Below, piece after piece: positions 18,154 to 47,552 of a DNA stretch of 64,000 nt. Position 1 is the first letter of the stretch. Each line of letters starts with the position of its first letter. The stretch is taken from contig CAYFIW010000001.1 in NCBI GenBank assembly GCA_964343265.1, positions 6,709-70,708 of the forward strand. The letters are read 5' to 3'. A program made the translations under genes and the position numbers. Under the pieces are notes generated by a model that searched no databases, was not told the DNA's origin, and worked only from the letters and a program-made list of their open reading frames with translations. Source of the DNA: an uncultured Dehalococcoidia bacterium. GTDB lineage: Bacteria; Chloroflexota; Dehalococcoidia; Lucifugimonadales; UBA826.

Positions 18154-18268
18154 AAATTTTCTCCTGACTATTAGCCTGTCTTTTACAAGCGTTTTTGCGT
18201 GAAGGTCAGTATATCTGAACGATATGGATATTTTCGAACTTACCACTGCAAGGTATAACATAGCGTCC

Positions 18269-24252: not shown

Positions 24253-25161
24253 TTGGGGTACTATAAAACGACTAATTTTCAGGTGCAGCAGAGACAAATG
24301 TACGATCCAAATGACTTATTCGACATAACTTCCTCCGATACCACTTATCTAGAAATAGGTTCAGGTTCTGATAAAAGATCTTTCCGTGCGACGATCTATC
24401 GTCCTAACATTAAATCTAAAGAGAGAGCTTTCCCTGCTTTCATAGATGTTCATGGCGGTGCCTGGCAAGGAGGCTCGCGCAGCGACGGAGAATATATAGA
24501 CAGATCGTTGGCAGCAAGTGGTATGGTCGTTGCCGCGGTAGACTTTAGAGTAGCTCCCCAAGATCCATACCCAAGACAAGTACAGGATGTTAATTATGCG
24601 GTTAGGTGGTGGAAAACAGAATGCTTTAATTACGCAGGAGATCCCTCAATTTTTGGAGGAATGGGAATATCGAGTGGGGGCCATACCCTAATGCTAAATT
24701 CATTAAAACCTCACGACCCTGCCTACACCAAACATACGTCGGAGAAATTATCTGGAACTGATTCAACACTCAACTATGTTATAGGCGTGTCAGCTGTTTT
24801 AGACTCATATGAACGCTACATTTACGCCAAGGGAGCAGCTATTGAGAATTTGATCCGAGGCACTGAAACATATTTTATTACCGAAGAAAATATGCAATTA
24901 GCAAACCCTCAAACCGTGTTGGACTCCAAATCCCATCAGCATCTGCCTTCATGCCTACTAATTCATGGCACTGTGGATGGAAACGTACCAAATGAAATAC
25001 CAAATAGGTTCTCTAAAACCTATGCTGATTTAGGAGGTGACATAGACCTAAGACTATTTGAAAATATGCCGCACAGCTTTGTTAGAACTCCGCAACCAGA
25101 ATCTCACGCCGCAATTCAAATGATGAAAGAGTTTATTGCAACTCAGGTTAACTCCAGATAA
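24253..25161 (+). CDS. Alpha/beta hydrolase (esterase/lipase, hydrolase fold-3 type)
   Basis: Oxyanion-hole-like motif VHGGAW, nucleophile elbow GISSGG, and late HGTVD / H residues. The track start is TTG. The ATG 45 nt downstream (MYDPND) is an alternative. Confidence 0.7.
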   Translation: MGYYKTTNFQVQQRQMYDPNDLFDITSSDTTYLEIGSGSDKRSFRATIYRPNIKSKERAFPAFIDVHGGAWQGGSRSDGEYIDRSLAASGMVVAAVDFRVAPQDPYPRQVQDVNYAVRWWKTECFNYAGDPSIFGGMGISSGGHTLMLNSLKPHDPAYTKHTSEKLSGTDSTLNYVIGVSAVLDSYERYIYAKGAAIENLIRGTETYFITEENMQLANPQTVLDSKSHQHLPSCLLIHGTVDGNVPNEIPNRFSKTYADLGGDIDLRLFENMPHSFVRTPQPESHAAIQMMKEFIATQVNSR

Positions 25162-25190: not shown

Positions 25191-26402
25191 TCATATCACC
25201 TTATATCCATGTGACATCACTGACATTACCTTATTCTCATCCCAGGGATGTGCCCTCGCAATATCTTCATTAATTTCAGTTCCCCAACCAGGAGCTGACG
25301 GTACCGTCATATAGCCGTCAACTATTTCAGGAACGCTAGTTGTTAATTCATCTTTCCAAGGAACATCATCAATATCTATTTCCATGATTCTTACATTGGG
25401 CAAGGATGCACACAAAGATGCACTCACAAAACTGGACAGGTGACTATAGTAATTGTGTGGAGCTACGTTATGTTGAAATACTTCAGCTAAATCACCAATC
25501 TTCTTAGATTGACTAAACCCATTCCAAGGAACGTCTATCATAAATATGTCAGCAACATGTTCCTCAAAATAAGGCAGATACTGATCCATGTAGAAAAGAT
25601 TTTCACCTGTGCAAATTTTGGTGGATGTAGAGTCTTTAATTTGACGTAAACTTGATGGATCATACATGTCAATTTCAAGCCACAACATATCGAATTGTTC
25701 TAAAACTTTAGCAATCCTCAAACATCCTTCGGTTTTAAAGTGAAAATTCAGATCCAGATTGATGTCTATGTCATCCCCCACGGCATCTCTAAACGTCCCA
25801 ATTAGAGTTTCTATATGCGGAATAAGCCACTTGGGTGCTATTTGATCAGTCGTACCAGCTCCACCAAATGAACCGCCGCCGAATGTAGCTCCTTCACCCG
25901 GAAGTAAAACATTAGTCTTCAAAGCAGTGAAGCCCCTCTCTTTTACTTCCTTCCCCAGAGCAGTTACATCCGCCCATGAATTAATGGGTGGAGTCCCCAA
26001 AATGTCCGAATGGCGGATCCTGCTGGACCCACAATGAGACCAATAAACCCTAACCTTATCTCTTGTCGGACCTCCGAATAGTTCAGCAACTGATATACCA
26101 AGAGCTTTTGCTTTGATATCAATAAAAGCACAATCCAGTCCAGCTAGTGCTTTAGCCGCAACTCCCCATCTACTCTGACGTGTATTGATTAACATTTCTG
26201 TAAACCGCATTTCGAATGCCCTCGGATCCTTGCCTATTAGCACGGGCTTTAGATCTCTTATAACTCCATCTATCCCATTAGGTAATTTTCCGTCACTACA
26301 TTCTCCCCACCCATAAATTCCTTCATCCGTTTCAACCTTCACAAACATCCAAGGTCTCCAACCGGCATCTACGATAAATGTTTTTATGTCAGTTATCTTC
26401 AA
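25191..26402 (-). CDS. Enolase-superfamily enzyme (mandelate racemase/muconate lactonizing family; mannonate/galactonate dehydratase-like)
   Basis: N-terminus MKITDIKTFIV...FVKVETDEGIYGWGE is typical of the acid-sugar dehydratase subgroup. Metal-ligand-like acidic residues occur in DINLDLN, WLEID and ENL contexts. Confidence 0.8.
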   Translation of the reverse strand: MKITDIKTFIVDAGWRPWMFVKVETDEGIYGWGECSDGKLPNGIDGVIRDLKPVLIGKDPRAFEMRFTEMLINTRQSRWGVAAKALAGLDCAFIDIKAKALGISVAELFGGPTRDKVRVYWSHCGSSRIRHSDILGTPPINSWADVTALGKEVKERGFTALKTNVLLPGEGATFGGGSFGGAGTTDQIAPKWLIPHIETLIGTFRDAVGDDIDINLDLNFHFKTEGCLRIAKVLEQFDMLWLEIDMYDPSSLRQIKDSTSTKICTGENLFYMDQYLPYFEEHVADIFMIDVPWNGFSQSKKIGDLAEVFQHNVAPHNYYSHLSSFVSASLCASLPNVRIMEIDIDDVPWKDELTTSVPEIVDGYMTVPSAPGWGTEINEDIARAHPWDENKVMSVMSHGYKVI

Positions 26403-27488: not shown

Positions 27489-28481
27489 CTAAGAAAAGAT
27501 CTCTTTTCGCGCCGTAGCTATTTTTCCCAAAACCTCTTCCTCTAGAGGGCCTTTCTCTACGGCATTAACCGCATGTTCTAAATGATTTAAATTAGACAGC
27601 CCTATTAAAGCGGTGTGTACTTTCTCATTAGTTACTGCAAACCGAATAGCTGCTTCGGACAAGCTCTCGACATATCCTTCATCAACCAGAAAAGAGTAGT
27701 TAAGAGATTGGGATACATCATCTTTCATTGACTTCCCGGTCGATATAGGAGCCACCTCCTGCGCGGAAATAGGATGTCGTTCAGATGAACCGGTAAGTGC
27801 GCCTCCAGCGAGTATACGAATTGCTACAGTTCCAATTCCGGTCAAGTTACACTTATCAATCACCGAATCATAGTCTTGGTAGGGAAATTGCGGGCTTACA
27901 GGCTCTCCAGCCGAAGGATTCAGTAGATTGTAGCAAGTATGTATGCCAGCTGGGCTGAACTGTTTGATAGTGTCTGTTACAGAAGCCGTAGATCCTAACC
28001 CATTAAAACCCCAGTATCTAATTTTGCCTTCAAAAACAGCCTTCTCAAAAGCGATCACAACATCTTCCATGTCTGATTGATTAAGATCCTCGCTATTCTC
28101 TAATGAGTCATCTGTAATCCGATTGTGGGTATAAACAATATCCACGGATTCGGCACCAAGCCTCTTAAGACTATTGTTTATTTGTTCTGACACCTCATTT
28201 TGTATAGAACCCGAGTGTTCTTTGTTTAACTTAACTTTGGTTCCTATAATTACATTAGGACTACCTAATTCACGTAAAAGCGCGCCCAAATGAATTTCAG
28301 AAAGACCGTCACCATAAGCTCGAGCCGTGTCGAAATAATTCATCCCCGCATCTAGAGCAAATTCAACAGTTTTTAACATTTCTTTATGTTCTCCACGAAC
28401 CATCAACCCGCCAACAGCACCACACCCAAATCCCAAAACAGAAATATCAAGGTCAGTTTTTCCAAATTTCCTATATTCCAA
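27489..28481 (-). CDS. Aldo/keto reductase
   Basis: Segment MEYRKFGKTDLDISVLGFGCGAVGG ... NYFDTARAYGDG, with the catalytic Tyr context AYG. Confidence 0.85.
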   Translation of the reverse strand: MEYRKFGKTDLDISVLGFGCGAVGGLMVRGEHKEMLKTVEFALDAGMNYFDTARAYGDGLSEIHLGALLRELGSPNVIIGTKVKLNKEHSGSIQNEVSEQINNSLKRLGAESVDIVYTHNRITDDSLENSEDLNQSDMEDVVIAFEKAVFEGKIRYWGFNGLGSTASVTDTIKQFSPAGIHTCYNLLNPSAGEPVSPQFPYQDYDSVIDKCNLTGIGTVAIRILAGGALTGSSERHPISAQEVAPISTGKSMKDDVSQSLNYSFLVDEGYVESLSEAAIRFAVTNEKVHTALIGLSNLNHLEHAVNAVEKGPLEEEVLGKIATARKEIFS

Positions 28482-30098: not shown

Positions 30099-30959
30099 TC
30101 ACTGGATTTTTGTTGAAACAGCTATATTTTGTATGACCTCCAACGGGTCTTTATACGGAGATGAGTCCACAATAAATACAACTCTATTTGCACCTGCTTC
30201 AAAATAATTTCGGGCCTGCATCTCTATTTCATCTTCGTTTCCCGGATCAACGAAAACCGTTATCTCTATTTCTGAAGGATCTCTCCCTATCTTCTGGCAT
30301 TCTAGTGTCAAATTTTTCCGCCCATCAGATATAGCCTCTGTAGAAACTTTAAACGGAGCCCACCCATCTCCCCACAAGGCTGTTCTCTGAAAGACTCTCG
30401 GCCCACGGCTACCCAAAATAATAGGAGGATGGGGCGAAGAGACAGGTTTTGGATCAAATCTTAAAGGTGGAAAACTATAGTAATTCCCTTGGTATTCTGG
30501 TTGGTCCTCCGTCCACATTTTCTTCATGACTTCAATAGACTCCGTAGTTTGTGTCCATCGACGAGGAAAATCTCCACCCAACGCCTTAGTTTCCTCGGGT
30601 TGCCAACCAGCACCAATACCAAATAAGAATCTCCCCTTCGAGTATAAATCCAGGGTTGAAATCCTTTTTGCGAGATCTATTGGATGATGCTCAGGAACCA
30701 AACAAACCCCTGTTCCTAACATCATTTTTTCTGTCACTGCCGCCACGATACTCAATCCAATCAAAGGATCCACCATCTTTAGATACGATTCAGGTATTGG
30801 AGCACCCACAACACCACCAGGGCCAACAGAAGGATTCACAGGTATGACGACATGTTCAGGTAGCCAAATAGATTCGAACCCCATTCCCTCTGCAGTTGAA
30901 GAGAAGTTAGCTAAATCTACGGAATTAGAATTAAATGCAGAATGCAATCCTATCTTCAT
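30099..30959 (-). CDS. LLM-class (luciferase-like) flavin/F420-dependent oxidoreductase
   Basis: Segment MKIGLHS...GFESIWLPEH ... GRFLFGIGAGW. The refined ATG at 30959 is preceded by GGAGGA with a 4-5 nt spacer. Confidence 0.8.
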   Translation of the reverse strand: MKIGLHSAFNSNSVDLANFSSTAEGMGFESIWLPEHVVIPVNPSVGPGGVVGAPIPESYLKMVDPLIGLSIVAAVTEKMMLGTGVCLVPEHHPIDLAKRISTLDLYSKGRFLFGIGAGWQPEETKALGGDFPRRWTQTTESIEVMKKMWTEDQPEYQGNYYSFPPLRFDPKPVSSPHPPIILGSRGPRVFQRTALWGDGWAPFKVSTEAISDGRKNLTLECQKIGRDPSEIEITVFVDPGNEDEIEMQARNYFEAGANRVVFIVDSSPYKDPLEVIQNIAVSTKIQ

Positions 30960-31197
30960 ATTTTCCTCCGAAACATGCTCTAAAAACGATCCCACAATGT
31001 AAATTACTACAAAAGCGGGTCATTGATCGGTCCCCTAAATCCCTGTGAAAACTAAAATGAACTGTATAATTGTAGTGCCGGGTCGTCTAATCTACTCTAT
31101 TTACCCATTTGGGTCTCCAGAATTTCACTATTCGGTACACTGAATATCAATTTCAATATACTGAATTCAATCCATAGTAATTCTTGGAGGACACGTT

Positions 31198-32514
31198 CTG
31201 AAATTCGAACAACTAAACCTATCAAAGACGATTCTATATGGAATCCAAAAAACGGGGTATGCGGAAACTACTCCTATTCAAGAGAAATCGATTCCACTCG
31301 CACTAGAAGGGAACGACATATTAGGGCTTGCACAAACCGGAACCGGAAAAACAGCTGCGTTTGCATTACCCATCCTTGAAAAACTGTTATCAAGCCATGT
31401 TGGGCAAAAAAAACAACATCCCAGATCTTTGATTATCGCACCTACCAGAGAACTAGCAGATCAAATAAATCAGTCGATACAACAACTGGGAACAAAAACA
31501 AACCTCAAAAGTACAACTATCTATGGGGGCGTAAACAAAAATCCTCAAAATGAAGTTTTATCTAAAGGGGTAGATATTGTAATTGCCTGTCCCGGAAGGT
31601 TATTGGACCACATAAGAGAGAAGACCATAACCCTTTCAAAAATAGAAATGTTGGTGATCGATGAAGCAGATACCATGTTTGACATGGGATTCCTCCCAGA
31701 CATACGCAGTATACTTTCCCATCTTCCAGTAGAAAGGCAAACAATGTTTTTTGCGGCAACCATGCCTCCACCAATAAAAACACTGGCATCTGAAATTCTG
31801 GATTCTCCTAAATCTGTCCAGATAGGAATCATAGCTCCAGCAAAAACCGTCAAACATGCTCTCTATCCAACCACTGACAAAATGAAAAAACGTATGATCA
31901 TGCATTTGTTGAAACAGACCGCAACAGGGCAAGTCATGATTTTTACGAGAACAAAACGAAGAGCTAGATTTCTTGCCAGCGACCTTGAAAATGACGGATT
32001 TAAAGTGGCTCCACTGCAAGGAAATATGTCTCAAAATAAGAGACAGCAAGCGATATCGGGTTTTAGGAAAGGCAAGTATGACATCCTTGTAGCTACTGAC
32101 ATTGCCTCCAGGGGGATAGATGTCTCTGATGTAACTCACGTCATTAACTACGACATGCCAAATACTGTCGATACCTATATTCACAGGATAGGAAGAACCG
32201 GGAGGGCAGAAAATATTGGAGAAGCTTTCACTTTTTCAACTAGAGAAGACGAGCCACTAATAAGGAAAGTTGAAAAGATACTTGGTTCAGAAATTGAACG
32301 AAGAACTATAGAAGATTTTGACTACGGGGGATTTACTCCAAAACAAGATCATCACAACCCATCAAGGGGTCAAAGACAGGAAAGACAACACAGAAACGGA
32401 TCTAACCCAAATTCAAATCGGAACAATAAATCCGGAAGATCGTGGGGCAAATCTAAATATAGAGGAACCAGAAACAAAAGATCCTACAGAGACCGAACTG
32501 AAAACAAAAGATAG
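31198..32514 (+). CDS. DEAD-box ATP-dependent RNA helicase with a basic C-terminal tail
   Basis: The frame is open from 31165. Q-motif GYAETTPIQ and motif I AQTGTGKT lie upstream of the track start (31429). Also present: DEAD (VIDEADTMF), SAT-like motif III (AAT), HRIGRTGRA, and an R/N/K-rich tail. The only SD-supported start is CTG at 31198, with GGAGG 7 nt upstream. Confidence 0.85.
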   Translation: MKFEQLNLSKTILYGIQKTGYAETTPIQEKSIPLALEGNDILGLAQTGTGKTAAFALPILEKLLSSHVGQKKQHPRSLIIAPTRELADQINQSIQQLGTKTNLKSTTIYGGVNKNPQNEVLSKGVDIVIACPGRLLDHIREKTITLSKIEMLVIDEADTMFDMGFLPDIRSILSHLPVERQTMFFAATMPPPIKTLASEILDSPKSVQIGIIAPAKTVKHALYPTTDKMKKRMIMHLLKQTATGQVMIFTRTKRRARFLASDLENDGFKVAPLQGNMSQNKRQQAISGFRKGKYDILVATDIASRGIDVSDVTHVINYDMPNTVDTYIHRIGRTGRAENIGEAFTFSTREDEPLIRKVEKILGSEIERRTIEDFDYGGFTPKQDHHNPSRGQRQERQHRNGSNPNSNRNNKSGRSWGKSKYRGTRNKRSYRDRTENKR

Positions 32515-32578: not shown

Positions 32579-33631
32579 ATGAAGTTCGGCTTGTTTTGGC
32601 AAGTTCCAGGCCATGAAAAATCTGACGTGCAGGAACGTCACTGGGAAACAGTTGAGGAGATAATACTTGGCGAAAAACTCGGTTTCTACGAAGCCTGGTT
32701 AGCAGAATCTCCGTTCTACCCGACCAGACCGATGTCACAGCCTTTATTTGTCATATCCGCAGCCGCACAATACACTTCTAAAATTAGGTTCGGAACTCTG
32801 GCAACACAGGTCCCAATGCATCACCCCATTGAATACGCTACTTCAGCAGCGACATGTGACATCATGACGAAGGGCAGATTAGATTTATGCCTAGGTGGAA
32901 GGTATGGCGGAGGATCGAGTCACGTCATGGGAGTATCTGATCAAATAAGTTCTGATCAAAGCAGAAGAATGGTCAGAGAATTCACAAACATACTCCGTAG
33001 AGCCTGGAAAACTGACAGGTTAGACTTTAACGGTGAGTTTTGGAAATTCCAAGATGTGCCTGTACTACCAAAACCAGCTCAAAGTGAGGGACCATCATTG
33101 TTAATGGCTGCAAATAGCGACGGAAGTTTCGCATTCGCGGCGCAACAAAATATGGGAGTGATAGGCACGACGCTGAGTCAACCATTAGCAAATATAGAAA
33201 AACACTCTAATACTTTTTCCAATATATATTCCAACAACAATTCTTTAGATCCTCAACCATTTCATCTGGCAATTTCTTTTTTCGTTGCTGAAACAAAAGA
33301 AAAAGCACATCAAATAATGTCCAGAAATTGGCTTAAATCCGATGTTATATCCGATGGACCACCTGTGCACACCACCGCTATTGGCGGAGGAAGACATGAT
33401 TTTTCTTCCGGAGAAGGGGGATGGGGAACTTGGGATTTCGAATCAGCCACTAAACATTGTATTTACGACAGTCCAGAAGGATGTGTGGAACGATTAAGAG
33501 AAATTCAAAAACGAGTACCCGTCTTGGATCAATGCATTCTCGAATTTAATAGACGCGGCAGGCTTACTACTCGAGAAGTCCAAGACTCAATGAAATTATT
33601 CGCAGACAGAGTATTGCCCGTTTTCAACTAA
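32579..33631 (+). CDS. LLM-class flavin-dependent oxidoreductase / monooxygenase
   Basis: Segment MKFGLFWQVP...GFYEAWLAE, with the luciferase-like TIM-barrel pattern. Confidence 0.75.
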   Translation: MKFGLFWQVPGHEKSDVQERHWETVEEIILGEKLGFYEAWLAESPFYPTRPMSQPLFVISAAAQYTSKIRFGTLATQVPMHHPIEYATSAATCDIMTKGRLDLCLGGRYGGGSSHVMGVSDQISSDQSRRMVREFTNILRRAWKTDRLDFNGEFWKFQDVPVLPKPAQSEGPSLLMAANSDGSFAFAAQQNMGVIGTTLSQPLANIEKHSNTFSNIYSNNNSLDPQPFHLAISFFVAETKEKAHQIMSRNWLKSDVISDGPPVHTTAIGGGRHDFSSGEGGWGTWDFESATKHCIYDSPEGCVERLREIQKRVPVLDQCILEFNRRGRLTTREVQDSMKLFADRVLPVFN

Positions 33632-33653
33632 CCTTTCTAGGGAGACAAAAAAA

Positions 33654-36176
33654 TTGGAACAAGTTCTCAGCGGTTTGAGAATAGTTGAATTTGGAAATGA
33701 CGTAGCTGCCGCTAACGTTGGAAGGTTACTGTCGGCCTATGGTGCAGAAGTTATACTCGTTGAACCACCGGAAGGAAATATCCTCCGACATCTTCCTCCC
33801 TATGCAACCAAAACCTCAACCTCAGAACCTGACCTTGAGAAAAGCATCCTTTTTGCATACATGAGTACAGGGAAAAAATCCGTTCTCCTAGATTTAAATC
33901 AACCTCAGAACATACAAATATTAAGAGACCTTGTTCTCAGCTCAGACGGCGTAGTTGATAGTTACCAACCAGGATATCTGACCAAATTAGGCATTGATCT
34001 AGAAGAACTTTCGAACATAAAACCATCACTATGCGTCACAAGGATATCTCCTTACGGACAGACTGGGCCTAAATCCTCATGGAAAACCAGCGCACTGACA
34101 AGTTTTGCATCTGGTGGACAGATGTACTTAACAGGTGACCCAGACCGAGAACCACTCATGACGGCAGGACATCAGGCACACATACAAGGAAGTCTTCATG
34201 CACTCGGTGGTACATTAACCGCTTTATTTGCAGCAGAAAAAACCGGTAAAGGAGATGTTCTTGACATCTCTCTACAAGAAGTTCAGCTTGCTACCCTTGA
34301 GGGAGCAGGACCAGCCGCCCTTTGGTATGGATCTGAACAACCGAGGGGAGGCAACAATCCAAGGGCTTTATGGGGCGTCCATCCTTGCAAAGACGGATGG
34401 ATTGGCGTTGCATCCATGCCTCGCCAAACCCACTCTGTTTTGGACACCATAAACGCCTCAGCATTAAAAGATGACCCTCTTTTCAAAGACAATGCCTGGA
34501 GCCAAGAAGCTGACGATTTATTAAGACATTTAGTGCCGTTGTTTACTTTAGAGCATGACGCTGAGGAGATTTTTAAAGTCGCAAATTCTTACCGAGCCCC
34601 GTTTGCCATGATTCCTGAACCTAGTGACCTTTTGAAATGGCGCCACTATCAAGAAATAGATTTCTGGCAGAAAGTTACTCATCCAGTACTGGGTGAGCAT
34701 CCCGTTCCATCCGGACCAATATGGTTTAGCCCTGATGAAGGAGGGGAAAAACCACTTCCAGATAAAGGAATGTTTAGACCCGCTCCGACCCTAGGACAAC
34801 ACACAAAGGAAGTACTTGAAGCTTTAAATAGCCGATCTAAAACCTCTAAAACTATCAATAACACCACAGAATCAACAAAATGCGAAGACCCATATGGTCC
34901 TCCTTTAAAGGGCCTTCGTGTTATTGATATGACTCAAGTTTGGTCAGGCCCCTACGCCGCCCGCTTCCTGGCAGATATGGGCGCGGATGTTATAAAAGTA
35001 GAAGGACCTACTTTTCCGGACCCAATCAGAACCGCCACAAGACAACATCGCGCCGGGGAACCAGACATAAATGTATCCGCATACTTTAGTGAATATAACC
35101 GGGGTAAGAGAGGATTTGCTGTCGACATAAAACAAAAAAGTGGTCTAGAAGCGCTAAGAAAGCTAATCGCAACCGCAGATGTGTTCCTTGAAAATTGGTC
35201 TTCCGGTGTAGCTGATCGAAACTCTTTAGGTTATGAAGACATAAGATCAATCAATCCCAAAATCATATATGTCACTATGCCAGGTTTCGGTCACCAGGGT
35301 TCAGATTCATCCATGGTAGGATTTGGGCCGACTATAGAGCAAATGGGAGGGCTTGTCGCACTTCAAGGATATAAGGGAGGAGAGCCACACAAAACAGGGA
35401 TCTCTTATGGCGATCCAATCGCAGGGGCCACCTGTGCTGCTGCTATCGCCGCCGCCCTGTTAAGAAGAGAGAAAACAGGCTACGGGTGTTATTGTGTCTT
35501 GCCTCAAAGGGATGGAGTCACTGGTCTTGTTGGGGAATTCTTTATAGCAGAATCATTGGGCTTTCCGATGGAATTAAGGCTAGGCAACAGTTCCAATTTT
35601 TCTACTCCTCATAATATATACCCATGCAAGCCAGATGATAAACCGAGAATAGTTCTTGGACCTGACGGAAATCCTGTAGGCGAATTGTTTGATAGATGGA
35701 TCGCTATTGATTGTCAAAGTGACAAAGAGTGGGATGCACTAAAGAAAACCATAAATGATCCCAGACTCAATAACCAAGAATATTCGACTCTGCAGGGCAG
35801 ACTCAAATATACGGAACAGATAGATAAAGTAATATCAGAATGGACCTGCGAGAAAGATCCTCACGAATTGGAGAACTTACTTCAGTCAAAACAAATCACA
35901 GCGTCATCAGTGGCGACAGCTGCTTCACTTCTAAATGATAATCATATCAAGGAAAGAAACGTTTTTATCTCTGTGATTCACTCTATTGTAGGTACTCACA
36001 GTACAGCTAGGCCGACCTGGAGATTCTCTAAGCGTACTAGTCTTCCATCTAAATCTAGCCCATTGTTTGGGGAACATAATGAAGAAATACTAAAAGACCT
36101 AGGATACGACGAGGAGATTATATCTTCTATGAAACAAAGTGGCGCGATATCTAAAACACTCCTAGGAAACAGGTAG
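33654..36176 (+). CDS. Tandem (duplicated) family III CoA-transferase (CaiB/BaiF) fusion protein
   Basis: Two complete modules in one 840-aa ORF. Module 1 starts LSGLRIVEFGNDVAAANVGRLLSAYGAEVILVEPP. Module 2 starts near residue 420 with LKGLRVIDMTQVWSGPYAARFLADMGADVIKVEGP. TTG start with GGGAGA upstream. Confidence 0.8.
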   Translation: MEQVLSGLRIVEFGNDVAAANVGRLLSAYGAEVILVEPPEGNILRHLPPYATKTSTSEPDLEKSILFAYMSTGKKSVLLDLNQPQNIQILRDLVLSSDGVVDSYQPGYLTKLGIDLEELSNIKPSLCVTRISPYGQTGPKSSWKTSALTSFASGGQMYLTGDPDREPLMTAGHQAHIQGSLHALGGTLTALFAAEKTGKGDVLDISLQEVQLATLEGAGPAALWYGSEQPRGGNNPRALWGVHPCKDGWIGVASMPRQTHSVLDTINASALKDDPLFKDNAWSQEADDLLRHLVPLFTLEHDAEEIFKVANSYRAPFAMIPEPSDLLKWRHYQEIDFWQKVTHPVLGEHPVPSGPIWFSPDEGGEKPLPDKGMFRPAPTLGQHTKEVLEALNSRSKTSKTINNTTESTKCEDPYGPPLKGLRVIDMTQVWSGPYAARFLADMGADVIKVEGPTFPDPIRTATRQHRAGEPDINVSAYFSEYNRGKRGFAVDIKQKSGLEALRKLIATADVFLENWSSGVADRNSLGYEDIRSINPKIIYVTMPGFGHQGSDSSMVGFGPTIEQMGGLVALQGYKGGEPHKTGISYGDPIAGATCAAAIAAALLRREKTGYGCYCVLPQRDGVTGLVGEFFIAESLGFPMELRLGNSSNFSTPHNIYPCKPDDKPRIVLGPDGNPVGELFDRWIAIDCQSDKEWDALKKTINDPRLNNQEYSTLQGRLKYTEQIDKVISEWTCEKDPHELENLLQSKQITASSVATAASLLNDNHIKERNVFISVIHSIVGTHSTARPTWRFSKRTSLPSKSSPLFGEHNEEILKDLGYDEEIISSMKQSGAISKTLLGNR

Positions 36177-37007: not shown

Positions 37008-38309
37008 CTAAGAGCTTACCTGATGTTGTTTTATCAGATCATCTATGCCCCTAACATTTGAATTTAGTAGTCCACAACCTATTGAGAACATCGACACAAG
37101 TACTCCCCCCACCGCCACAGTCGTGGCTACACCTACGCTACCGTTTTCAAAAAATCCTGCTAGTCCTCCTGCATACATTGCACCCAAAGGCATAATACTA
37201 AACGTCATCCCATGAAATCCCATCACTCTTCCCCTCATACGATCAGGAACCAGCAGTTGAATTGTGCTCATTATAGATATCAAGTAGGCTGAATTACTTA
37301 AACCCATGATCAACATAAAGATCATAGCAAGATAATAATGCTCATATTTTAATGAAGTTAGGGAGAAAACTGTAAGAGTCAGCCCAAATAACACAGATCC
37401 CGCAATGAGCAACAACCGCGTCCTTCCAGCCGTACCTATTCGACCCAATAAAAGACTCATAGCCAAGGCACCCATTCCACTAATGCCAACTAATACACCT
37501 TGGCCGTCCGCACCTACTCGTAAAATATCAGTTGCAAAAACTGGCATCATAGGGATGTATGCCATTCCAAAAAAGCTGTTAAAAAACGTCATTAAAATCA
37601 ATATTAAAAAAATGTTATTTGCCGTCAAAAATTTAACAACGACAAATAACCCACGATCCTCGGTCAAAAGATCTTTGGGATCCGTAAATCTATTGTCAGA
37701 GTTCGTAGATTTCCTTACCTGCAATGTCATCACGACAAATACCATGACGAAAAACCCAGCAGATGAGATTAAAAAAGATACTCCCTCTCCCACCCAAGTA
37801 ATTATGAACCCCGCGAAAGCCGGAGCAATTATTCGATTACTCATCCATATGGTTGAGTTGAGTGCAACTGCGTTACTCATCGCTGAACGCTCAATTAGGC
37901 TAGGATAAAGAGCCTGTCTCGCTGGCTGGTCAAAAGCATTGACCCCACCAGCAAGAAAAGCAATAACTATGACATGTGATGAACTCACAATATCTGTAAA
38001 AGTCAGAGTTCCTAAAATCAGTATCAGAAACCCATTTGTGGATTGTGTGATCGCGATGAGGCGTTTTCGATCTATCCTGTCAGCCAAAACACCACCAAAA
38101 AGATTTAAGGCGATCGCGGGTCCCGCATTAGCAAGGCCGACATATCCTAGAAAAATAGGGTCTTCTGTAAGTCGATGTATCAACCAAAATTGAGTAAACG
38201 TCAACATTTGAAAACCTGTCACAGACGCCAAAGTTCCAAACCAATAGGACCTAAATGAATCGAATCCCATAGCCGGACCTAACAATCGCACAAGAAATGA
38301 TGACATCAT
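37008..38309 (-). CDS. MFS transporter (12 TMS, ENTS/MFS_3-like)
   Basis: Motif GGVLADRIDRKR (motif A-like), with about 12 hydrophobic segments. Confidence 0.75.
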   Translation of the reverse strand: MMSSFLVRLLGPAMGFDSFRSYWFGTLASVTGFQMLTFTQFWLIHRLTEDPIFLGYVGLANAGPAIALNLFGGVLADRIDRKRLIAITQSTNGFLILILGTLTFTDIVSSSHVIVIAFLAGGVNAFDQPARQALYPSLIERSAMSNAVALNSTIWMSNRIIAPAFAGFIITWVGEGVSFLISSAGFFVMVFVVMTLQVRKSTNSDNRFTDPKDLLTEDRGLFVVVKFLTANNIFLILILMTFFNSFFGMAYIPMMPVFATDILRVGADGQGVLVGISGMGALAMSLLLGRIGTAGRTRLLLIAGSVLFGLTLTVFSLTSLKYEHYYLAMIFMLIMGLSNSAYLISIMSTIQLLVPDRMRGRVMGFHGMTFSIMPLGAMYAGGLAGFFENGSVGVATTVAVGGVLVSMFSIGCGLLNSNVRGIDDLIKQHQVSS

Positions 38310-38425: not shown

Positions 38426-39442
38426 TTGACATGTTCTGACGAAAGTCATATCTACGAAGCAACAGATGATGACACTCCAGCTTTTGTTGGAATTGATACT
38501 TTTTTGCAAGGTCCATTTGTTAAAACGCCAAGCCAACTACGTGAATATAAAGCCGACGTTGCTATAATTGGCGCGCCATTTGACCTAGGTGTCGTACACA
38601 AACCAGGCGCGAGATTTGGCCCTCGTGCCATCAGACAGGCAGGATATTTTGGGGCTCCAAATGATGATATATATCATATAGGCTTAGGTATATACCCAAC
38701 GGACGAACTGAAAGTCGTTGATTATGGCGACGCCAATTGTCCTCCCAATTCTATTGAATTGAGCCACCGAGCCATAGAAGAGAAGGTTCGACAAATTCTC
38801 GATACAGATACAATTCCCGTAGTTATCGGGGGCGATCACTCCATCACCTTGCCTTCAGCGACAGCCGTTGCGAATCATTTTGGATTTGGAAATGTTGGCA
38901 TGGTTCACTTTGATGCTCATGCTGATACAGCCCCTTCATCTTACGGAGGTGTGCTAGAGTCACATAGCACTCCGATGCGTAGGTTGATTGAATCCGGAGC
39001 AATACCAGGCAAAAATTTTATCCAAGTCGGTCTTAGAGGATATTGGCCACCCCACACTTTATTTGATTGGATGAGAGAGCAAAAAATGAGATGGCATCCA
39101 ATGTCTGAAATCGAGACAGATGGATTTGACTCTGTGATAGATAAAGCAATAAATGAAGCACTTGATGGACCGGACAAAATATATTTATCGGTGGACATTG
39201 ACGTACTAGATCCCGCATTCGCTCCCGGTACTGGAACCCCGGAGCCAGGCGGGTTAAGTTCATCACAATTATTACGTGCTATAAGAACGATATCCAAATC
39301 GGTTGAAATCGTTGCAGTAGATATTGTTGAAGTTGCACCACATTATGAAGGACCCGCGAGTATCACAGCAGAGGCAGCACACCGTATGATGCTGGAAGCA
39401 ATTAGTGGTATTGCAGTTTATAGGAAGAATAATCGTACCTAG
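38426..39442 (+). CDS. Ureohydrolase-family enzyme (agmatinase / guanidino-acid hydrolase-like)
   Basis: Mn-binding motifs GGDHSIT, HFDAHADT and SVDIDVLDP. TTG start with AAGGGAG 7 nt upstream. Confidence 0.85.
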   Translation: MTCSDESHIYEATDDDTPAFVGIDTFLQGPFVKTPSQLREYKADVAIIGAPFDLGVVHKPGARFGPRAIRQAGYFGAPNDDIYHIGLGIYPTDELKVVDYGDANCPPNSIELSHRAIEEKVRQILDTDTIPVVIGGDHSITLPSATAVANHFGFGNVGMVHFDAHADTAPSSYGGVLESHSTPMRRLIESGAIPGKNFIQVGLRGYWPPHTLFDWMREQKMRWHPMSEIETDGFDSVIDKAINEALDGPDKIYLSVDIDVLDPAFAPGTGTPEPGGLSSSQLLRAIRTISKSVEIVAVDIVEVAPHYEGPASITAEAAHRMMLEAISGIAVYRKNNRT

Positions 39443-40353
39443 CCAAGATAGATATCCCCCGATCTGCCTCCCTTCTTACTAAGAAGTTTCGTACTCATCT
39501 CCATACCCTTGTCAACAGCCTTACACATATCGTAGATGGTTAAAGCGGCTATAGAAACCGCAGCTAATGCCTCCATTTCCACTCCAGTTTTACTCTGGGT
39601 TCTAGCCACGCTTTTAATTTCTATGGCCGAATCATTTTCATTTATTTCAAAACTTATATCTACGTGTGTTAGAGGTAATGGATGACAAAGAGGTATGAGG
39701 TTGGATGTTTGCTTTGCGCCCATAATGCCTGCGATTTTGGCAATCGCCAGCACATCACCTTTCTCAAAAGAATTCTCTTGAACTAATTGTAAAGTGCTTG
39801 GTAGCATTTTGACCGTGCCAACCGCCTCCGCAACCCTCTCCGTATCCGGTTTTGCTCCCACATTTACCATACTTACTTTGCCGGCAGCATCAACGTGAGT
39901 AAGCTTTTCTTGGAGGTCTACCTTTAAACCACTCATTCTTCCCTCATCTCTATTTTTTTTTGAATCTATGTTTCCCGTCGCCTCTCCATGAGCCAACCTA
40001 TCCGCCTCCTCATTCAATGGATCTCCAGCATGACCCTTAACCCATTCCCAATTTACTTTTCTTATCTGAACTTCTTTATCTAAAAGGTCCCACAAATCAT
40101 TATTTTTTTTTCGCTTCCAGTTTTTTGTCATCGTATTAATTACATAGGAAGAATCGGAAAAAACCGTTACTTGTGACTTCGATGGAATACTCTGTAGAGC
40201 CTCTACTACTGCCTTTATTTCCATTCTATTGTTTGTCGTATCAGGATCGTTACCATGAATAACTCGACGAGGTCCATCACCTATAATCACGGCTCCCCAA
40301 CCACCTGGACCAGGATTACCTAGACAGGCTCCATCTGTGTATATAGTGATCAC
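39439..40353 (-). CDS. rnhA-moaC: RNase HI fused in one ORF to cyclic pyranopterin monophosphate synthase MoaC
   Basis: Residues 1-~130 are RNase HI: IYTDGACLGNPGPGGWG, NNRMEI, SDSSYV, WEWVKGHAG and EEADRLA. Residues 140-304 are MoaC: LTHVDAAGKVSMVNVGAK, LIPLCHPLPL and GVEMEAL. An internal ATG at 39936 is preceded by GAGGGA. Confidence 0.8.
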   Translation of the reverse strand: MITIYTDGACLGNPGPGGWGAVIIGDGPRRVIHGNDPDTTNNRMEIKAVVEALQSIPSKSQVTVFSDSSYVINTMTKNWKRKKNNDLWDLLDKEVQIRKVNWEWVKGHAGDPLNEEADRLAHGEATGNIDSKKNRDEGRMSGLKVDLQEKLTHVDAAGKVSMVNVGAKPDTERVAEAVGTVKMLPSTLQLVQENSFEKGDVLAIAKIAGIMGAKQTSNLIPLCHPLPLTHVDISFEINENDSAIEIKSVARTQSKTGVEMEALAAVSIAALTIYDMCKAVDKGMEMSTKLLSKKGGRSGDIYLG

Positions 40354-43917: not shown

Positions 43918-45000
43918 TTGGGTGTCCTAGATCAATTTAAGGTAGTCGAACTTAGTAACTATCCTGCGGGTAATATTTTGGGCATGCTGTTGGCAGACCA
44001 AGGTGCCGACGTGTTAAAAATTTTCCCTGAAGAGGGAAACCCCCTAGAAGGCACTGCTGAACATGCTGTTTGGAACAGGGGTAAAACTCAAATTAGGACT
44101 TCATTTTCCTTAGAAACTATTCTTGAATTTCTTAGTGCCGCTGACGTTTTAATCGAGTGTCTAAACCCACATCAGGCAGATAATATAGGCCTGACATCAG
44201 ATATCCTGTCTAAAACAAATGCAGGCCTGATTACTGCCTCGTTACCTGCATTCCGAGAAGGCCATAAGTACGAAAATATACCCGCCAGAGAAGAATTAGT
44301 AGCCGCATCTTCAGCTATCTATGCTCTCAATCCTTCAGGTGAACTTCCCGTTGAAGGAGAGGGACCCTCTTTTCATAGTCTTTACTACGCCAGTACCTTT
44401 GCCGCCATGACTGCTGCTCCCGCAGTCGTAGCAGCTCTTATTCAAAGAGATCTCACAAAAAAAGGTCAAAAAATCACAGTACCAATACATGATGCTATGT
44501 TCCAAGGTATGGGAACCGCTCTAGTCCGCCATGCAAAGAGGAAACATGGAAGACAAGAAGGCCATCCAATCATCGAGAGGTTCTATGAATGCTCAGACAA
44601 TAGATGGGTAAATGTAAATCTATCGATCCCTAGATTTTTGGAGATATTTCTTGATGTTATAGAGCATCCTGAATGGATGAAAGATATTTCTAGCATCGGG
44701 CTCTCAAATCCTGACTCTTCGTTAATAGATTCTTGGAAATACAAAATTAATGCAGTTTGGAAACAACGGACAGCTCTGGAGTGGGAATCTTTAATGTCAG
44801 ATGTGGGCCTACCGGTTACTATGTGTCGAAGTATCGACGAATGGGTTAATGAAGAGCACGCTTTGCAATCTGGTGCGATTATAGAAATCAATGACCCTCA
44901 TTTTGGGAAAATGAAACAACCCGGGATTTTAGTTAGGACCCTGTCTAATCCAGGCATAGTTTCTGGCTCTGCACCTTACATTGGAAATATCCATGAATAA
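43918..45000 (+). CDS. Family III CoA-transferase (CaiB/BaiF) protein
   Basis: N-terminus LDQFKVVELSNYPAGNILGMLLADQGADVLKI. TTG start. Confidence 0.75.
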   Translation: MGVLDQFKVVELSNYPAGNILGMLLADQGADVLKIFPEEGNPLEGTAEHAVWNRGKTQIRTSFSLETILEFLSAADVLIECLNPHQADNIGLTSDILSKTNAGLITASLPAFREGHKYENIPAREELVAASSAIYALNPSGELPVEGEGPSFHSLYYASTFAAMTAAPAVVAALIQRDLTKKGQKITVPIHDAMFQGMGTALVRHAKRKHGRQEGHPIIERFYECSDNRWVNVNLSIPRFLEIFLDVIEHPEWMKDISSIGLSNPDSSLIDSWKYKINAVWKQRTALEWESLMSDVGLPVTMCRSIDEWVNEEHALQSGAIIEINDPHFGKMKQPGILVRTLSNPGIVSGSAPYIGNIHE

Positions 45001-46210
45001 CAGAGATCAGGTTCCAATGACTGAACCACCTCCTTTGAAAGGAATACGAGTTCTAGATCTCTGTATTGTCCTTGCAGGTCCTACTTGTGGAAGAACTTTG
45101 GCACAGTATGGCGCAGAAGTTATAAAAATAGACCCAGATCATCGTCTTCCGCAACTTACACCATGGCTTGACGTTGGGCGTGGAAAGAGAAGTATTTCAC
45201 TTAATTTGAATAAACCAGGTGGTATTGAAGCGTTCCTAAAATTGACAGATTCTGCTGATGTAATCATAGAGGGATTCAGAAAAGGAGTTACAGAACGACT
45301 TGGAATCGGATACGAAAGGCTCTCCGAGAGAAATCCATCTCTTATTTACGGCTCAATCAATTGCTTTGGACATGAAGGACCGTGGCAACTGCGACCAGGG
45401 TTTGAACAAAATGCTCAGGCCGCCACAGGAGTACAACTGCGAAATTCTGGGATCCCACTCGATCTCAATAGTGAAAATGTTAAACCCCGTCCAGCTACAT
45501 TTACTTTAAATGATTACGGAACAGGAATATCAGCAGCATTCGCTATTATGTTAGCTATATTAGAACGCAACAAAACAGGTATAGGACAAAAAGTCGAAGC
45601 CGCCCTTTCGTATACCTCATCAACAATTACCGGTTCTAGTAACATTGACTACGATGGGTTCAATAGGGAAGAGATAGGTGGACCCGGGGCTAGAGGTAAA
45701 GACTATTTCAACAGGCTTTACGAATGTAGTGACGGATGGATCTTTATTTCTGCTTCTACTGAATTAGAACGTGATAATCTGAAGGCCATTCCTTATTTTT
45801 GTCAGGCAATACAATTAGGTGAAGTTCATTCAATAGAGAAAATCTTTAAAACAAAGTCTGTTTCAGATTGGCAAATTATTTTGAATAACTCAGGAATTCC
45901 TGCTGTTCGTAATAACACAGCTCTAGACCTTCATGCAGATCCTTACAACCAAGAGAATGAACTAGTTATAAAAACAGATTATGAATATTCCTCTTCTGAT
46001 ATTCCAAAAGATCAAACAAATTGGGGAAATACTACCTGGCCTGGCAACCCTGTATCTATGTCAGGAACTAACCTAATCGACGTTGTTGCCCCTTCATTTG
46101 GAGCAGACACTCATCAAGTTCTTAAGGAGATAGGCATTTCTGACATAGATATCTCACGTATGGTACAAAATGGAACTATTCCTGCTGACCTACCTATTCC
46201 TCTAATCTGA
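44993..46210 (+). CDS. Family III CoA-transferase (CaiB/BaiF) protein
   Basis: Segment LKGIRVLDLCIVLAGPTCGRTLAQYGAEVIKIDP. The ATG at 44993 overlaps the upstream stop (ATGAATAA), and the track TTG at 44981 is in the same frame. Confidence 0.8.
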   Translation: MNNRDQVPMTEPPPLKGIRVLDLCIVLAGPTCGRTLAQYGAEVIKIDPDHRLPQLTPWLDVGRGKRSISLNLNKPGGIEAFLKLTDSADVIIEGFRKGVTERLGIGYERLSERNPSLIYGSINCFGHEGPWQLRPGFEQNAQAATGVQLRNSGIPLDLNSENVKPRPATFTLNDYGTGISAAFAIMLAILERNKTGIGQKVEAALSYTSSTITGSSNIDYDGFNREEIGGPGARGKDYFNRLYECSDGWIFISASTELERDNLKAIPYFCQAIQLGEVHSIEKIFKTKSVSDWQIILNNSGIPAVRNNTALDLHADPYNQENELVIKTDYEYSSSDIPKDQTNWGNTTWPGNPVSMSGTNLIDVVAPSFGADTHQVLKEIGISDIDISRMVQNGTIPADLPIPLI

Positions 46211-46223
46211 ACAAAAAGAGACT

Positions 46224-47552
46224 TCACAACTTTGAAGCAATTTTCCTGCCTTTTTTTGCATAAATCTCTGCAAAATATGTCGATAAGCCAATATAGTGCT
46301 CGGGATTAAGAAGATCTGTGATCTGCTCTAGGGTTAGTCTGCTTGACACCTCGCTTTCCTCCGACAGTGTTTCCCTAAAAGGTCGTCCTTCATTAACAGA
46401 TTTTTGGGCTGCATCATAAACAACATCATGAGCTTTTTGTCTTCCCATTTCCTTCCCTAGCTCTAACATTATTTTCTCGGACATTATCAATCCCCCCGAT
46501 AAATCTAGATTGATTCTCATCCTGTCCGGAAACAACGTGAGGCCTGAAAATATCTCATTAAGATTATCTAAAATCTCAGCGGTTAAAAAACACACCCTGT
46601 CAATTGCTGAATTTATCATCATACTTGTAGTTTTATCAGCCTCATGTTCAGTTTGCATAGCCTCCAACGCCATAGGCACAAATGTCCTAACTTCTGACGC
46701 CCAAGCCACCACATCTTGGCTCAATCGTGGGTTCCGCTTCTGAGGCATCGTAGAAGATCCAACAGCTCCCAGAGGAACCGGCTCCTCAACTTCGCCAAAT
46801 TCCTGCTTCATCATTGTGTATACCTCACGAGCCATCTTGCTCGAGGTAGCCGCCAGCATTGCTAAAAGAGTGATATATTCTGTGAGATGATCACCAATTG
46901 TCCGAGAAGGCATAGGCATTGACGCTAATCCCAATTCTTTTGCCATGAGATTTTGAGTTTCTATTCCCTCTAATCCTACAGATGCCATAGTCCCGGCACC
47001 TCCTCCTAGCATTGCTACAAATACACGACCTTCACATTCTTTTAATCGTGATACATGCCTAATTAATTCATCAATCCAAACAGCAACCTTGTATCCAAAC
47101 GTTGCGGGAACAGCATGTTGCCCGTGTGTCCTTCCTGGCATTGGATAGCTCTTAGATTTTTCCGCCAAGTCACTCAAGGTAAAAAGCAATTCACCTAAAC
47201 CCTTTAAATAAAAATCATGGCATTTCTTAACTACTAAAAGTTTTCCAGTTTGCGTTATGTTCTGAGTCGTCGCTCCCCAGTGTATGTAGCCACCTGCATC
47301 ATCTCCGCACACCCTATCTAATTCCCAAATTAAAGGAACAAGCGGATGCCCAGTCTTTTTTAATCCAGCATCAACATTCTCTATGTCTAATAATTCTAAT
47401 TTCCCTTTTTCTTGAATTTTTTTTGCTGCCCACAAAGGTATTATTTCTTGTTTTGCTTGTGCTTTGGCAAGCGCCACTTCCACATCGAGATAAGCTTGGT
47501 AAATCGATTCCCTGGTAAGAAGATTTTTGATTGATTTATTTATTGATGACAT
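46224..47552 (-). CDS. Fumarate-lyase superfamily enzyme (adenylosuccinate lyase / 3-carboxymuconate cycloisomerase-like)
   Basis: Superfamily signature GSSTMPQKRNP, plus a TQNIT motif and a HGQHA region. Confidence 0.8.
   Translation of the reverse strand: MSSINKSIKNLLTRESIYQAYLDVEVALAKAQAKQEIIPLWAAKKIQEKGKLELLDIENVDAGLKKTGHPLVPLIWELDRVCGDDAGGYIHWGATTQNITQTGKLLVVKKCHDFYLKGLGELLFTLSDLAEKSKSYPMPGRTHGQHAVPATFGYKVAVWIDELIRHVSRLKECEGRVFVAMLGGGAGTMASVGLEGIETQNLMAKELGLASMPMPSRTIGDHLTEYITLLAMLAATSSKMAREVYTMMKQEFGEVEEPVPLGAVGSSTMPQKRNPRLSQDVVAWASEVRTFVPMALEAMQTEHEADKTTSMMINSAIDRVCFLTAEILDNLNEIFSGLTLFPDRMRINLDLSGGLIMSEKIMLELGKEMGRQKAHDVVYDAAQKSVNEGRPFRETLSEESEVSSRLTLEQITDLLNPEHYIGLSTYFAEIYAKKGRKIASKL

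Follow-up and report, generated by a model that had tools for sequence, protein, structure and literature searches.

A two-domain family III CoA-transferase from an uncultured Dehalococcoidia bacterium, predicted to resemble a covalently joined BbsEF-like heterodimer with one nucleophile

[quoted passage not shown] We estimate the probability of this reading at about 80%. Two modules of about 400 residues each would pack within one chain like the subunits of an interlocked dimer; the fold is predicted, and the interlocking we infer. The protein adds no new architecture and is of modest importance. It does give a testable picture, that of a BbsEF-like pseudo-heterodimer made of one chain and having a single nucleophile (D587), for a very abundant but uncharacterized enzyme class of the SAR202/Dehalococcoidia bacteria, which are thought to oxidize recalcitrant marine dissolved organic matter.

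The open reading frame begins with TTG, ends with TAG and contains no internal stop codon, and the residue equivalent to its start is also the start of the homologues (consensus MLxGxRVIE). The Pfam model PF02515 (CoA_transf_3) scores 544.7 bits on the protein (cut-off 23.3, E = 1.4e-163), the match being broken into several stretches that cover both halves, and all matches in the PDB are family III proteins. An earlier note on this DNA had read the frame as two full-length, divergent family III modules, and this is borne out: the N half (residues 1–405) and the C half (residues 406–840) each align end to end with single-domain family III enzymes of about 400 residues and are 24% identical to each other. 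The possibility raised in the note that the second half might be an incomplete module is thereby removed. The N-terminal Rossmann motifs, which had been placed at residues ~5–40 and ~420–455, lie at residues ~8–38 and ~423–452.

Table 1. Features of the two-domain CoA-transferase locus (coordinates in the window)
Feature	Position	Strand	Basis or remark
Luciferase-like (LLM) flavin/F420 oxidoreductase gene	32579..33631	+	PF00296, E = 1.6e-42; below all NCBIfam cut-offs
Shine-Dalgarno-like GGGAGA	33640..33645	+	sequence reading; 8 nt 5' of the TTG
Two-domain family III (CaiB/BaiF/Frc-type) CoA-transferase gene	33654..36176	+	ORF list, translation, PF02515, homologues
N module, residues 1–392	33654..34829	+	complete family III fold, nucleophilic Asp missing; most similar to chain A of BbsEF
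His176 codon CAC, N-half residue in the catalytic-Asp column	34179..34181	+	alignments with SUGCT, YfdW, Frc-like enzymes and the BbsEF chains
Inter-module linker, residues 393–417	34830..34904	+	Ser/Thr/Asn-rich here, unconserved in relatives
C module, residues 418–840	34905..36173	+	predicted canonical catalytic family III module
Asp587 codon GAT, predicted catalytic nucleophile, motif ISYGDPIAG	35412..35414	+	alignment, invariance
20-residue insertion PDDKPRIVLGPDGNPVGELF, residues 660–679	35631..35690	+	small domain of the C module

The short Ser/Thr/Asn-rich linker described in the note is also present. It begins at residue 393 with SRSKTSKTINNTTEST, comprises about 25 residues (22–40 in the relatives) and is the least conserved stretch of the protein, with a mean frequency of the top residue of 0.18. 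Among the structural regions the large domain of the C module is the most conserved (0.75), followed by the small (0.65) and large (0.64) domains of the N module and the small domain of the C module (0.57). The values for the large C domain and the small N domain fit one working site built from these two domains. The insertion in the small domain of the C module is absent from single-domain enzymes, being a gap in all reference enzymes of the MAFFT alignment; it is predicted to form two short strands (residues 665–668 and 674–678) and is partly conserved in the clade consensus.

The catalytic Asp, which the earlier note could not place in either half, was located by aligning each half with characterized family III enzymes as the note had proposed. 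In the C half it is D587, which shares its column with the catalytic Asp of YfdW/Frc (native Asp169, also the number in CaiB), the Asp of SUGCT and D178 of BbsEF chain B, and which is invariant in 119/119 close homologues, in a further set of 73/73 sequences and in 133/133 two-domain cluster representatives. The N half has His176 in this column, and its motifs GHQA(H/Y) and (D/E)S stand where the canonical xxxD and EN are found. In the 119 homologues the column is occupied by Tyr (70), His (31), Phe (6), Gln (4), Gly (2) and Met (1) and never by Asp or Glu; across the 133 two-domain cluster representatives Asp accounts for 9% and Glu for 15%. Judged from these alignments it is quite probable that of the two sites at the interface only the one of the C module can carry out catalysis. 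The idea that the fusion allowed two active sites to diverge thus holds as far as divergence is concerned (D587 versus His176), but what the column records is the loss of one nucleophile and not two diverging active sites. The pocket around the vestigial N-half site is itself well kept, with G172 and Q174 invariant and H173, A175 and Q178 at 89% or more in the 119 homologues. This conservation exceeds what a passive scaffold would need and may mean a second function.

Of all solved structures the succinyl-CoA:(R)-benzylsuccinate CoA-transferase BbsEF (PDB 9fn0, 9fol, 9fun) is the best match of both halves in sequence and in structure, and the match is reciprocal. The N half is closest to 9fn0_A (128 bits; next match 96 bits, 9fn0_B 74 bits), and the C half scores best with 9fn0_B (155.5 bits) and SUGCT (155.0 bits) followed by Frc-like enzymes and YfdW, with 9fn0_A at 104 bits. 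The design and its order are the same: chain A lacks the Asp and has Tyr in this column and, as in the N half, ES in place of EN, whereas chain B has D178, the residue that bears the CoA adduct in entry 9fol (title "D178-CoA adduct"). From the chain lengths chain A is presumed to be BbsE and chain B to be BbsF. In the hetero-oligomer BbsEF each pair of subunits has a single competent nucleophile, and the resemblance is one of design only, since BbsE and BbsF are separate polypeptides and the identity to the 840-residue protein is only 27–28%. Furthermore no bbs-like neighbors, as in the bbs/bss operon (bbsA-H beside bss genes), were found near the gene, and the source organism is no known anaerobic toluene degrader. 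The homodimeric enzymes Frc, YfdW, CaiB, SUGCT, YfdE and Rv3272 share the fold of each module (target-normalized TM 0.8–0.9), the nucleophile motif of the C half and the Rossmann-type N-terminal motif. They possess two identical active sites, in contrast to the two unlike modules and the one nucleophile of the fused protein.

An AlphaFold2 model of the whole 840-residue chain, calculated with an alignment of 119 sequences, gave one compact fold with a mean pLDDT of 93.4 and a pTM of 0.94; disorder is confined to the linker, where residues 400–405 are the only part with a pLDDT below 50. When the model was compared with the PDB by Foldseek every top match was a single-domain chain of about 400 residues spanning half of the query. 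Each half superimposes on whole subunits of interlocked dimers with a target-normalized TM of 0.80–0.92; for the threading of the two modules the high pTM of the whole chain is only indirect evidence. The best matches were BbsEF chains D and B (0.91–0.92, the values of the C half) and SUGCT (0.91). The covalent pseudo-heterodimer proposed in the earlier note is thus supported by two complete modules, by the model of the whole chain and by halves that match whole subunits. No two-domain member was among the solved structures searched, so that an experimental structure would be new.

We propose that the protein moves CoA from a donor thioester onto a carboxylic acid without using ATP. By analogy with Frc, YfdW and BbsEF, Asp587 of the C module would attack the acyl-CoA donor, giving anhydride and enzyme-CoA thioester intermediates, in a site closed by the small domain of the N module. 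The N module would have lost its nucleophile (His176) and remained under selection, most likely as an obligatory structural partner that shapes the substrate site. Succinyl-, formyl- or similar dicarboxylyl-CoA thioesters serve as donors in the nearest relatives, and a CoA transfer of this kind would fit the breakdown of carboxylates that has been proposed for SAR202/Dehalococcoidia. No particular donor or acceptor can be named, because the scores of all NCBIfam equivalogs (formyl-CoA transferase, succinate-glutarate, succinyl-CoA:mesaconate, CaiB and mesaconyl-CoA isomerase) remained far below their cut-offs, the best scores and cut-offs being 325.8/442, 310.3/504, 299.3/750, 273.8/700, 155.2/413 and 82.4/725. 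The same fold is also used by racemases and intramolecular transferases of the family.

The acceptor might be a product of the LLM oxidoreductase encoded next to the transferase. As the earlier note had pointed out, the transferase gene follows the LLM gene with a gap of 22 nt from the stop codon to the TTG; a consensus scan of this gap revealed no promoter-like or terminator-like site above the shuffled expectation, and the two genes are probably co-transcribed. We scored the association across the relatives by tblastn. An LLM orthologue lies directly upstream in L088 (98%), L089 (65%) and L001 (62%) and is absent from L090. At the 80 loci from GTDB species genomes an LLM gene is found directly upstream only in L028, with a weak partial match of 33%, and downstream in L074. 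The arrangement described in the note is therefore correct for this locus, but the wider link does not hold, being kept only down to about 62% identity and missing in a 60% relative. The gene context differs among the relatives; the other neighbors here are a DEAD-box helicase, a PP2C phosphatase, an MFS transporter, an arginase-family protein and MoaC/MoaA.

The tandem two-domain architecture has already been described. [quoted passage not shown] The 840-residue protein agrees with this class in its tandem CoA_transf_3 domains of about 400 residues, in a homology that peaks at the N terminus of each domain, in the poorly conserved linker and in a catalytic Asp situated in the C-terminal domain, where the PtmU4 homologues also keep it (PMC6006322). 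It belongs to an uncharacterized clade centered on Dehalococcoidia/SAR202. Identity to the plasmid-borne examples from Actinobacteria and Proteobacteria does not exceed ~35%; the tblastn search of plasmids yielded only genes named "CoA transferase", and many of the matches were single-domain genes aligned to both halves.

As DddD, the first characterized two-domain member, is a CoA-transferase/lyase (PMC6006322, PMC10664990), the fused protein might likewise be bifunctional, with the C module transferring CoA and the Asp-less site of the N module carrying out a lyase, hydratase or isomerase step on the new CoA thioester. The residues G172-H173-Q174-A175-x-x-Q178 together with K74, R231, N234, R257 and Q258 are invariant or nearly so, and Landry et al. 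speculated on lyase functions for DddD-like paralogues of SAR202 (PMC5395668). However, the D587 site spans the interface and itself requires residues of the partner module, and this explains the conservation without a second activity. Chain A of BbsEF has the same QAY-type motif and this enzyme is known only as a transferase; moreover the second chemistry of DddD is not known to reside in its N domain. We therefore consider a bifunctional enzyme unlikely. The same low expectation applies to the more specific proposal that the strictly conserved N-module pocket G172-H173-Q174-A175-[Y/H]176-x-Q178, capped by the clade-specific hairpin of residues 660–679, is a second catalytic (non-transferase) or channeling site. 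If it were, the protein would be a two-step enzyme that couples, for example, CoA activation to a lyase, hydratase or isomerase step on recalcitrant carboxylates supplied by the LLM oxidoreductase, and selection for a fixed 1:1 pairing would account for the repeated fusion of tightly linked gene pairs.

That the gene is itself a DddD orthologue, encoding a DMSP CoA-transferase/lyase with which a marine bacterium would release dimethyl sulfide, is much less probable still. The DddD proteins of Marinomonas, Endozoicomonas and others share, by their published descriptions, the marine setting and the plan of two CaiB domains; in Endozoicomonas DddD these domains occupy residues 1–416 and 439–821 (PMC7174347). 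The source here is marine as well and a Tara Oceans metagenome holds a homologue of 65% identity, but relatives also occur in MAGs from groundwater, soil and peat. DddD is the best Swiss-Prot match for a subset of the SAR202 CoA-transferases (PMC5395668), probably because it was then the sole characterized two-domain enzyme (PMC6006322). No DddD model is among the NCBIfam matches of the 840-residue protein, DddD reportedly branches outside all other two-domain proteins (PMC6006322), and the operon partners of dddD, namely a LysR regulator, a BCCT transporter and dehydrogenases for 3-hydroxypropionate and malonate semialdehyde (PMC10664990, PMC7174347), are absent nearby.

Hardly any weight can be given to a PtmU4-like reaction, in which the Asp of the C domain would turn an acyl-CoA into a thiocarboxylic acid with the help of a sulfur-carrier protein. 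PtmU4/PtnU4, which form the thioacid of thioplatensimycin, are two-domain type III enzymes whose activity likewise depends on an Asp of the C domain (D430 mutants; PMC6006322). They differ by their sulfur transfer, by their place in an actinomycete natural-product cluster and by the position of the Asp, D430 against D587, which points to an N domain of different size. The "thioacid group" has members only in Actinobacteria and Beta-/Gammaproteobacteria (PMC6006322), and no gene for an acyl-CoA synthetase or a ThiS/MoaD-type carrier lies beside the 840-residue gene.

Since many relatives are split pairs with a single in-frame stop codon between the genes, one base error could mimic a fusion, but a sequencing or assembly artefact that joined two adjacent genes is for practical purposes ruled out: nearly all of the best 120 database homologues, which represent independent assemblies from ENA, JGI, NCBI and Logan and reach down to 43% identity, are full-length with 810–847 residues (the exceptions being three shorter, probably partial proteins and one of 936 residues), all classifiable GTDB relatives of at least 43% identity are fused, the 840-codon frame recurs on a 98% identical contig from another assembly, and the linker, variable in length and sequence, is read through in frame. 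The stop or frameshift between the halves that the earlier note had envisaged is thus absent.

A stand-alone 405-residue protein resembling the N half (P0121; 53% identical by HMMER, 51% by tblastn) is encoded on a single 3-kb contig of about twofold coverage without a C-half gene following, and is too weakly documented to be interpreted.

The note had suggested a survey of how common the architecture of about 800 residues is. The architecture is abundant in the databases; of the 72 classifiable related loci in GTDB species genomes, 36 are fused and the other 36 consist of two adjacent genes that keep the order of the modules. Gaps of 0–20 nt or small overlaps separate most of the split genes, and in 13 pairs a single in-frame stop codon lies between them. 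One split pair is present in the window itself; its first gene has Ser and its second gene Asp. The fused form would derive from such tightly linked pairs, in which a variable subunit is followed by the Asp-bearing subunit, and apparently arose more than once; a neighbor-joining tree (calculated without support values) hints at several events of fusion or fission. With fused and split forms in a ratio of about 1:1 and often one stop codon apart, these loci are a convenient natural system for studying the fusion and fission of obligately interlocked dimers.

The earlier note had described, from the sequence alone and with the catalytic Asp left unplaced, a tandem fusion of two family III CoA-transferase modules, and our analysis confirmed this observation in every element. 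PF02515 (CoA_transf_3) is the sole Pfam family in the 840-residue product (E = 1.4e-163), and single-domain family III enzymes of about 400 residues match residues 1–405 and, separately, residues 406–840 end to end. One ORF thus holds two full modules, whose sequences are 24% identical. The linker, beginning at residue 393, is the segment of lowest conservation (mean top-residue frequency 0.18) and is 22–40 residues long in relatives; both the linker and the short gap to the upstream luciferase-like (LLM) oxidoreductase gene were borne out. An assembly artefact is ruled out by full-length homologues in independent assemblies and by the same ORF in L088, a contig of another assembly (98% identity) in which the 840 codons and their neighbours are as in the window. 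The 120 best database matches (43–98% identity) stem from independent ENA, JGI, NCBI and Logan assemblies, their named sources being SAR202 cluster, Dehalococcoidia or Chloroflexota bacteria, and nearly all are full-length with 810–847 residues; the exceptions are three shorter, probably incomplete entries and one protein of 936 residues.

Features of the window discussed in the text
Feature	Position	Strand	Remarks
Two-domain CoA-transferase gene	33654..36176	+	single ORF, 840 codons, TTG start, TAG stop
Shine-Dalgarno GGGAGA			8 nt 5′ of TTG start of fused gene
LLM oxidoreductase	32579..33631	+	PF00296, E = 1.6e-42; stop ends 22 nt before TTG
LLM oxidoreductase	30099..30995	-
Enolase superfamily (MR/MLE)	25191..26402	-
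Aldo/keto reductase	27489..28481	-
Alpha/beta hydrolase	24253..25161	+
MFS transporter	18224..19753
MFS transporter	37008..38309
Unfused CoA-transferase, first of pair	43918..45000	+	360 aa; Ser at nucleophile column
Unfused CoA-transferase, second of pair	44981..46210	+	409 aa; Asp kept
Adenylosuccinate-lyase/fumarase-type lyase	46224..47552	-
ORF, 767 aa	20210..22513	-	no real Pfam match
DEAD-box helicase	31198..32514	+	homology to 506-aa L001 counterpart starts at CTG 31198
RNase H (residues 2-123) + MoaC (162-296) fusion	39439..40353	-	one ORF, 304 aa
MoaA	40359..41375	-

Alignment of each half to known enzymes (HMMER, MAFFT) placed D587 of the C half and His176 of the N half in the Asp column. 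D587, within the motif I-S-Y-G-D587-P-I-A-G, falls into the nucleophile column of YfdW/Frc (native Asp169), which also holds the Asp of SUGCT and D178 of chain B of the benzylsuccinate CoA-transferase BbsEF, a residue that PDB entry 9fol names in its title as the site of the CoA adduct. It is invariant in 119 of 119 close homologues, in 73 of 73 C-type modules (GTDB loci and references) and in 133 of 133 two-domain cluster representatives. At the corresponding N-half column no acidic residue occurs in the 119 homologues (Y70/H31/F6/Q4/G2/M1); among the 133 two-domain representatives Asp is present in 12 and Glu in 20. The N half furthermore has D-S where the canonical 'ENF/WxxG' motif has E-N, and (A/G)(G/A)A in place of the 'AGP' of the N-terminal motif. 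By these alignments the nucleophile is kept in the C module only. An Asp is found at the N-type nucleophile column ('GGYQADYQGG') in the split loci L040, L044, L045, L052, L053 and L073 (Tepidiformaceae and related, about 35% identity), and the fused query clade has 'GHQA(Y/H)YQ' there. Since these split relatives lie near the query clade, loss of the N-half Asp in the query lineage may postdate or accompany the fusion.

The two halves differ in their likeness to BbsEF. For the N half, chain A (9fn0_A) is the best match by far (128 bits, next 96, chain B 74), whereas the C half matches chain B best (155.5 bits, chain A 104), with SUGCT nearly equal at 155.0 bits. Chain A carries a Tyr at the Asp column within 'QAY', like the clade consensus 'GHQAYYQ' of the N half, and 'ES' instead of 'EN'. 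Given these chain preferences and motifs, the fused protein looks like a BbsE-type module without nucleophile followed by a catalytic one of BbsF type; from the chain lengths (410 and 409 residues) we presume chain A to be BbsE. We regard the N module as BbsE-type; it lacks the Asp yet is still conserved.

An AlphaFold2 model from the 119-sequence alignment was confident (mean pLDDT 93.4, pTM 0.94, pLDDT below 50 only at residues 400–405), each half matching a whole single-domain chain. The top Foldseek matches in the PDB were all chains of about 400 residues covering half of the query (query-normalised TM about 0.45), with target-normalised TM values of 0.91–0.92 (SUGCT, BbsEF chains B/D) and 0.80 (BbsEF chain A). 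No two-domain chain occurred among the PDB sequence matches (E <= 1e-10) or the 50 best Foldseek matches. In CaiB and Frc, one subunit's large domain faces the small domain of its partner across the CoA site, and by analogy the small domain of the N module should close the D587 site. The conservation by domain (C-large 0.75, N-small 0.65, N-large 0.64, C-small 0.57) is consistent with this arrangement. We infer an interlocked threading of the two modules in one chain. The covalent pseudo-heterodimer suggested in the earlier note is supported, with the refinement that it would possess one nucleophile, in the C module.

The architecture of about 800 residues is widespread. With the N half alone as query, HMMER searched 1.84 billion cluster representatives exhaustively and gave 28,217 matches at E <= 0.001 and 1,644 at E <= 1e-30. 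From the 150 best matches 149 sequences were obtained: 132 have at least 720 residues with two or three matched stretches each, 10 are single-domain proteins of about 400 aa, and the other 7 are fragmentary or of intermediate length. A word-indexed search yielded 1168 matches at E <= 1e-10 among 8000 candidates scored. Relatives are encoded by at least 598 stretches in GTDB species genomes; the best 80 come chiefly from Dehalococcoidia and other Chloroflexota, and the rest from Acidimicrobiia and other Actinomycetota (Pseudonocardia, Mycobacterium), Acidobacteriota, Myxococcota, Methylomirabilia, Binataceae and Alpha-, Beta- and Gammaproteobacteria.

By locating the halves and seeking stops between them we classified these 80 loci as 36 fused, 36 adjacent split pairs and 8 unclassifiable. 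The split pairs always run from N-type to C-type (36/36), mostly spaced by 0–20 nt or slightly overlapping. The same frame is used in 20 and a different frame in 16, a same-frame share above one in three (binomial p = 0.005) which is only suggestive in view of the phylogenetic relatedness of the loci. Thirteen of the 36 pairs (L017, L021, L022, L023, L025, L026, L029, L033, L054, L059, L063, L078, L084) have just one in-frame stop between their genes, in L033 and L054 as TAA followed immediately by ATG; one substitution would be enough to turn such pairs into fusions. All classifiable relatives of at least 43% identity are fused and form one clade in a rough NJ tree, with split pairs as nearest neighbours. 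Additional fused clades elsewhere in the tree hint at several fusion or fission events.

A stand-alone N-half-like protein of 405 aa (P0121, L091 1278..2495; 53% identity by HMMER, 51% by tblastn) contains the motif GHQAYYQ and terminates inside the linker region, and no C-type gene follows it on its contig. As this contig has only 3 kb and about 2x coverage, a chimeric contig or a truncated gene may account for this. The window itself contains an unfused pair 8 kb downstream of the fused gene, overlapping by 20 nt, in the same order as the fused modules and adjoining a lyase gene; an equivalent pair, also with the lyase gene, is present in the 62%-related genome (L001, 12046..14326).

The gene context of the transferase is unstable among relatives. 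The LLM gene lies directly upstream in L088 (98%), L089 (65%) and L001 (62%), with gaps of about 100 and 200 nt in the latter two, and is absent upstream in L090 (60%) and in the contexts of the homologues P0014 (58%), P0021 and P0045. Among the best 80 GTDB loci an LLM gene is directly upstream only in L028 (weak 33% partial match), and one is downstream in L074. An enoyl-CoA hydratase gene adjoins the transferase gene in some relatives. The LLM product remained under every NCBIfam subfamily cut-off, and for the transferase the formyl-CoA, succinate-glutarate, succinyl-CoA:mesaconate, CaiB and mesaconyl-CoA isomerase equivalogs all stayed well under theirs. No ddd, bbs or thioacid-cassette genes were found near the fused gene in the window. 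Those characterised enzymes that come nearest use succinyl- or formyl-CoA as donor and dicarboxylates as substrates. The best-supported reading is a predicted ATP-independent acyl-CoA:carboxylate CoA-transferase, which would take part, possibly together with the LLM enzyme encoded next to it, in carboxylate catabolism as proposed for SAR202. The neighbourhood has a high density of the paralogous catabolic families that typify SAR202, here LLM oxidoreductases (two), enolase superfamily, aldo/keto reductase, alpha/beta hydrolase and MFS transporters.

A CaiB/BaiF paralogue expansion in SAR202 has been reported, with DddD as best Swiss-Prot match for some paralogues (Landry et al. 2017, PMC5395668). 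DddD, whose Endozoicomonas form has two CaiB domains (1–416 and 439–821; PMC7174347), was the only characterised two-domain member when PtmU4 was shown to need the conserved Asp of its C-terminal domain and 2401 two-domain sequences were analysed (Dong et al. 2018, PMC6006322). The architecture is thus already established, the query clade being an uncharacterised member, and novelty is low. Of some interest are the strong conservation of the vestigial pocket of the N half, a clade-specific 20-residue insertion in the C small domain (residues 660–679) and the frequent interchange of fused and split forms.

Three other genes of the window deserve mention. The 767-aa ORF has as its sole Pfam match a sub-threshold coiled-coil hit to SF-assemblin. 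The DEAD-box helicase likely starts at a CTG codon, since homology begins there, GGAGGA lies 6 nt 5′ of it, and a start at the first in-frame ATG/GTG/TTG (31429) would lose the Q motif and motif I (GTGKT); the alternative is a truncated gene. The start is arranged alike in L088. RNase H and MoaC form an unusual domain combination, encoded directly downstream of MoaA, and this fusion is also called in L088.
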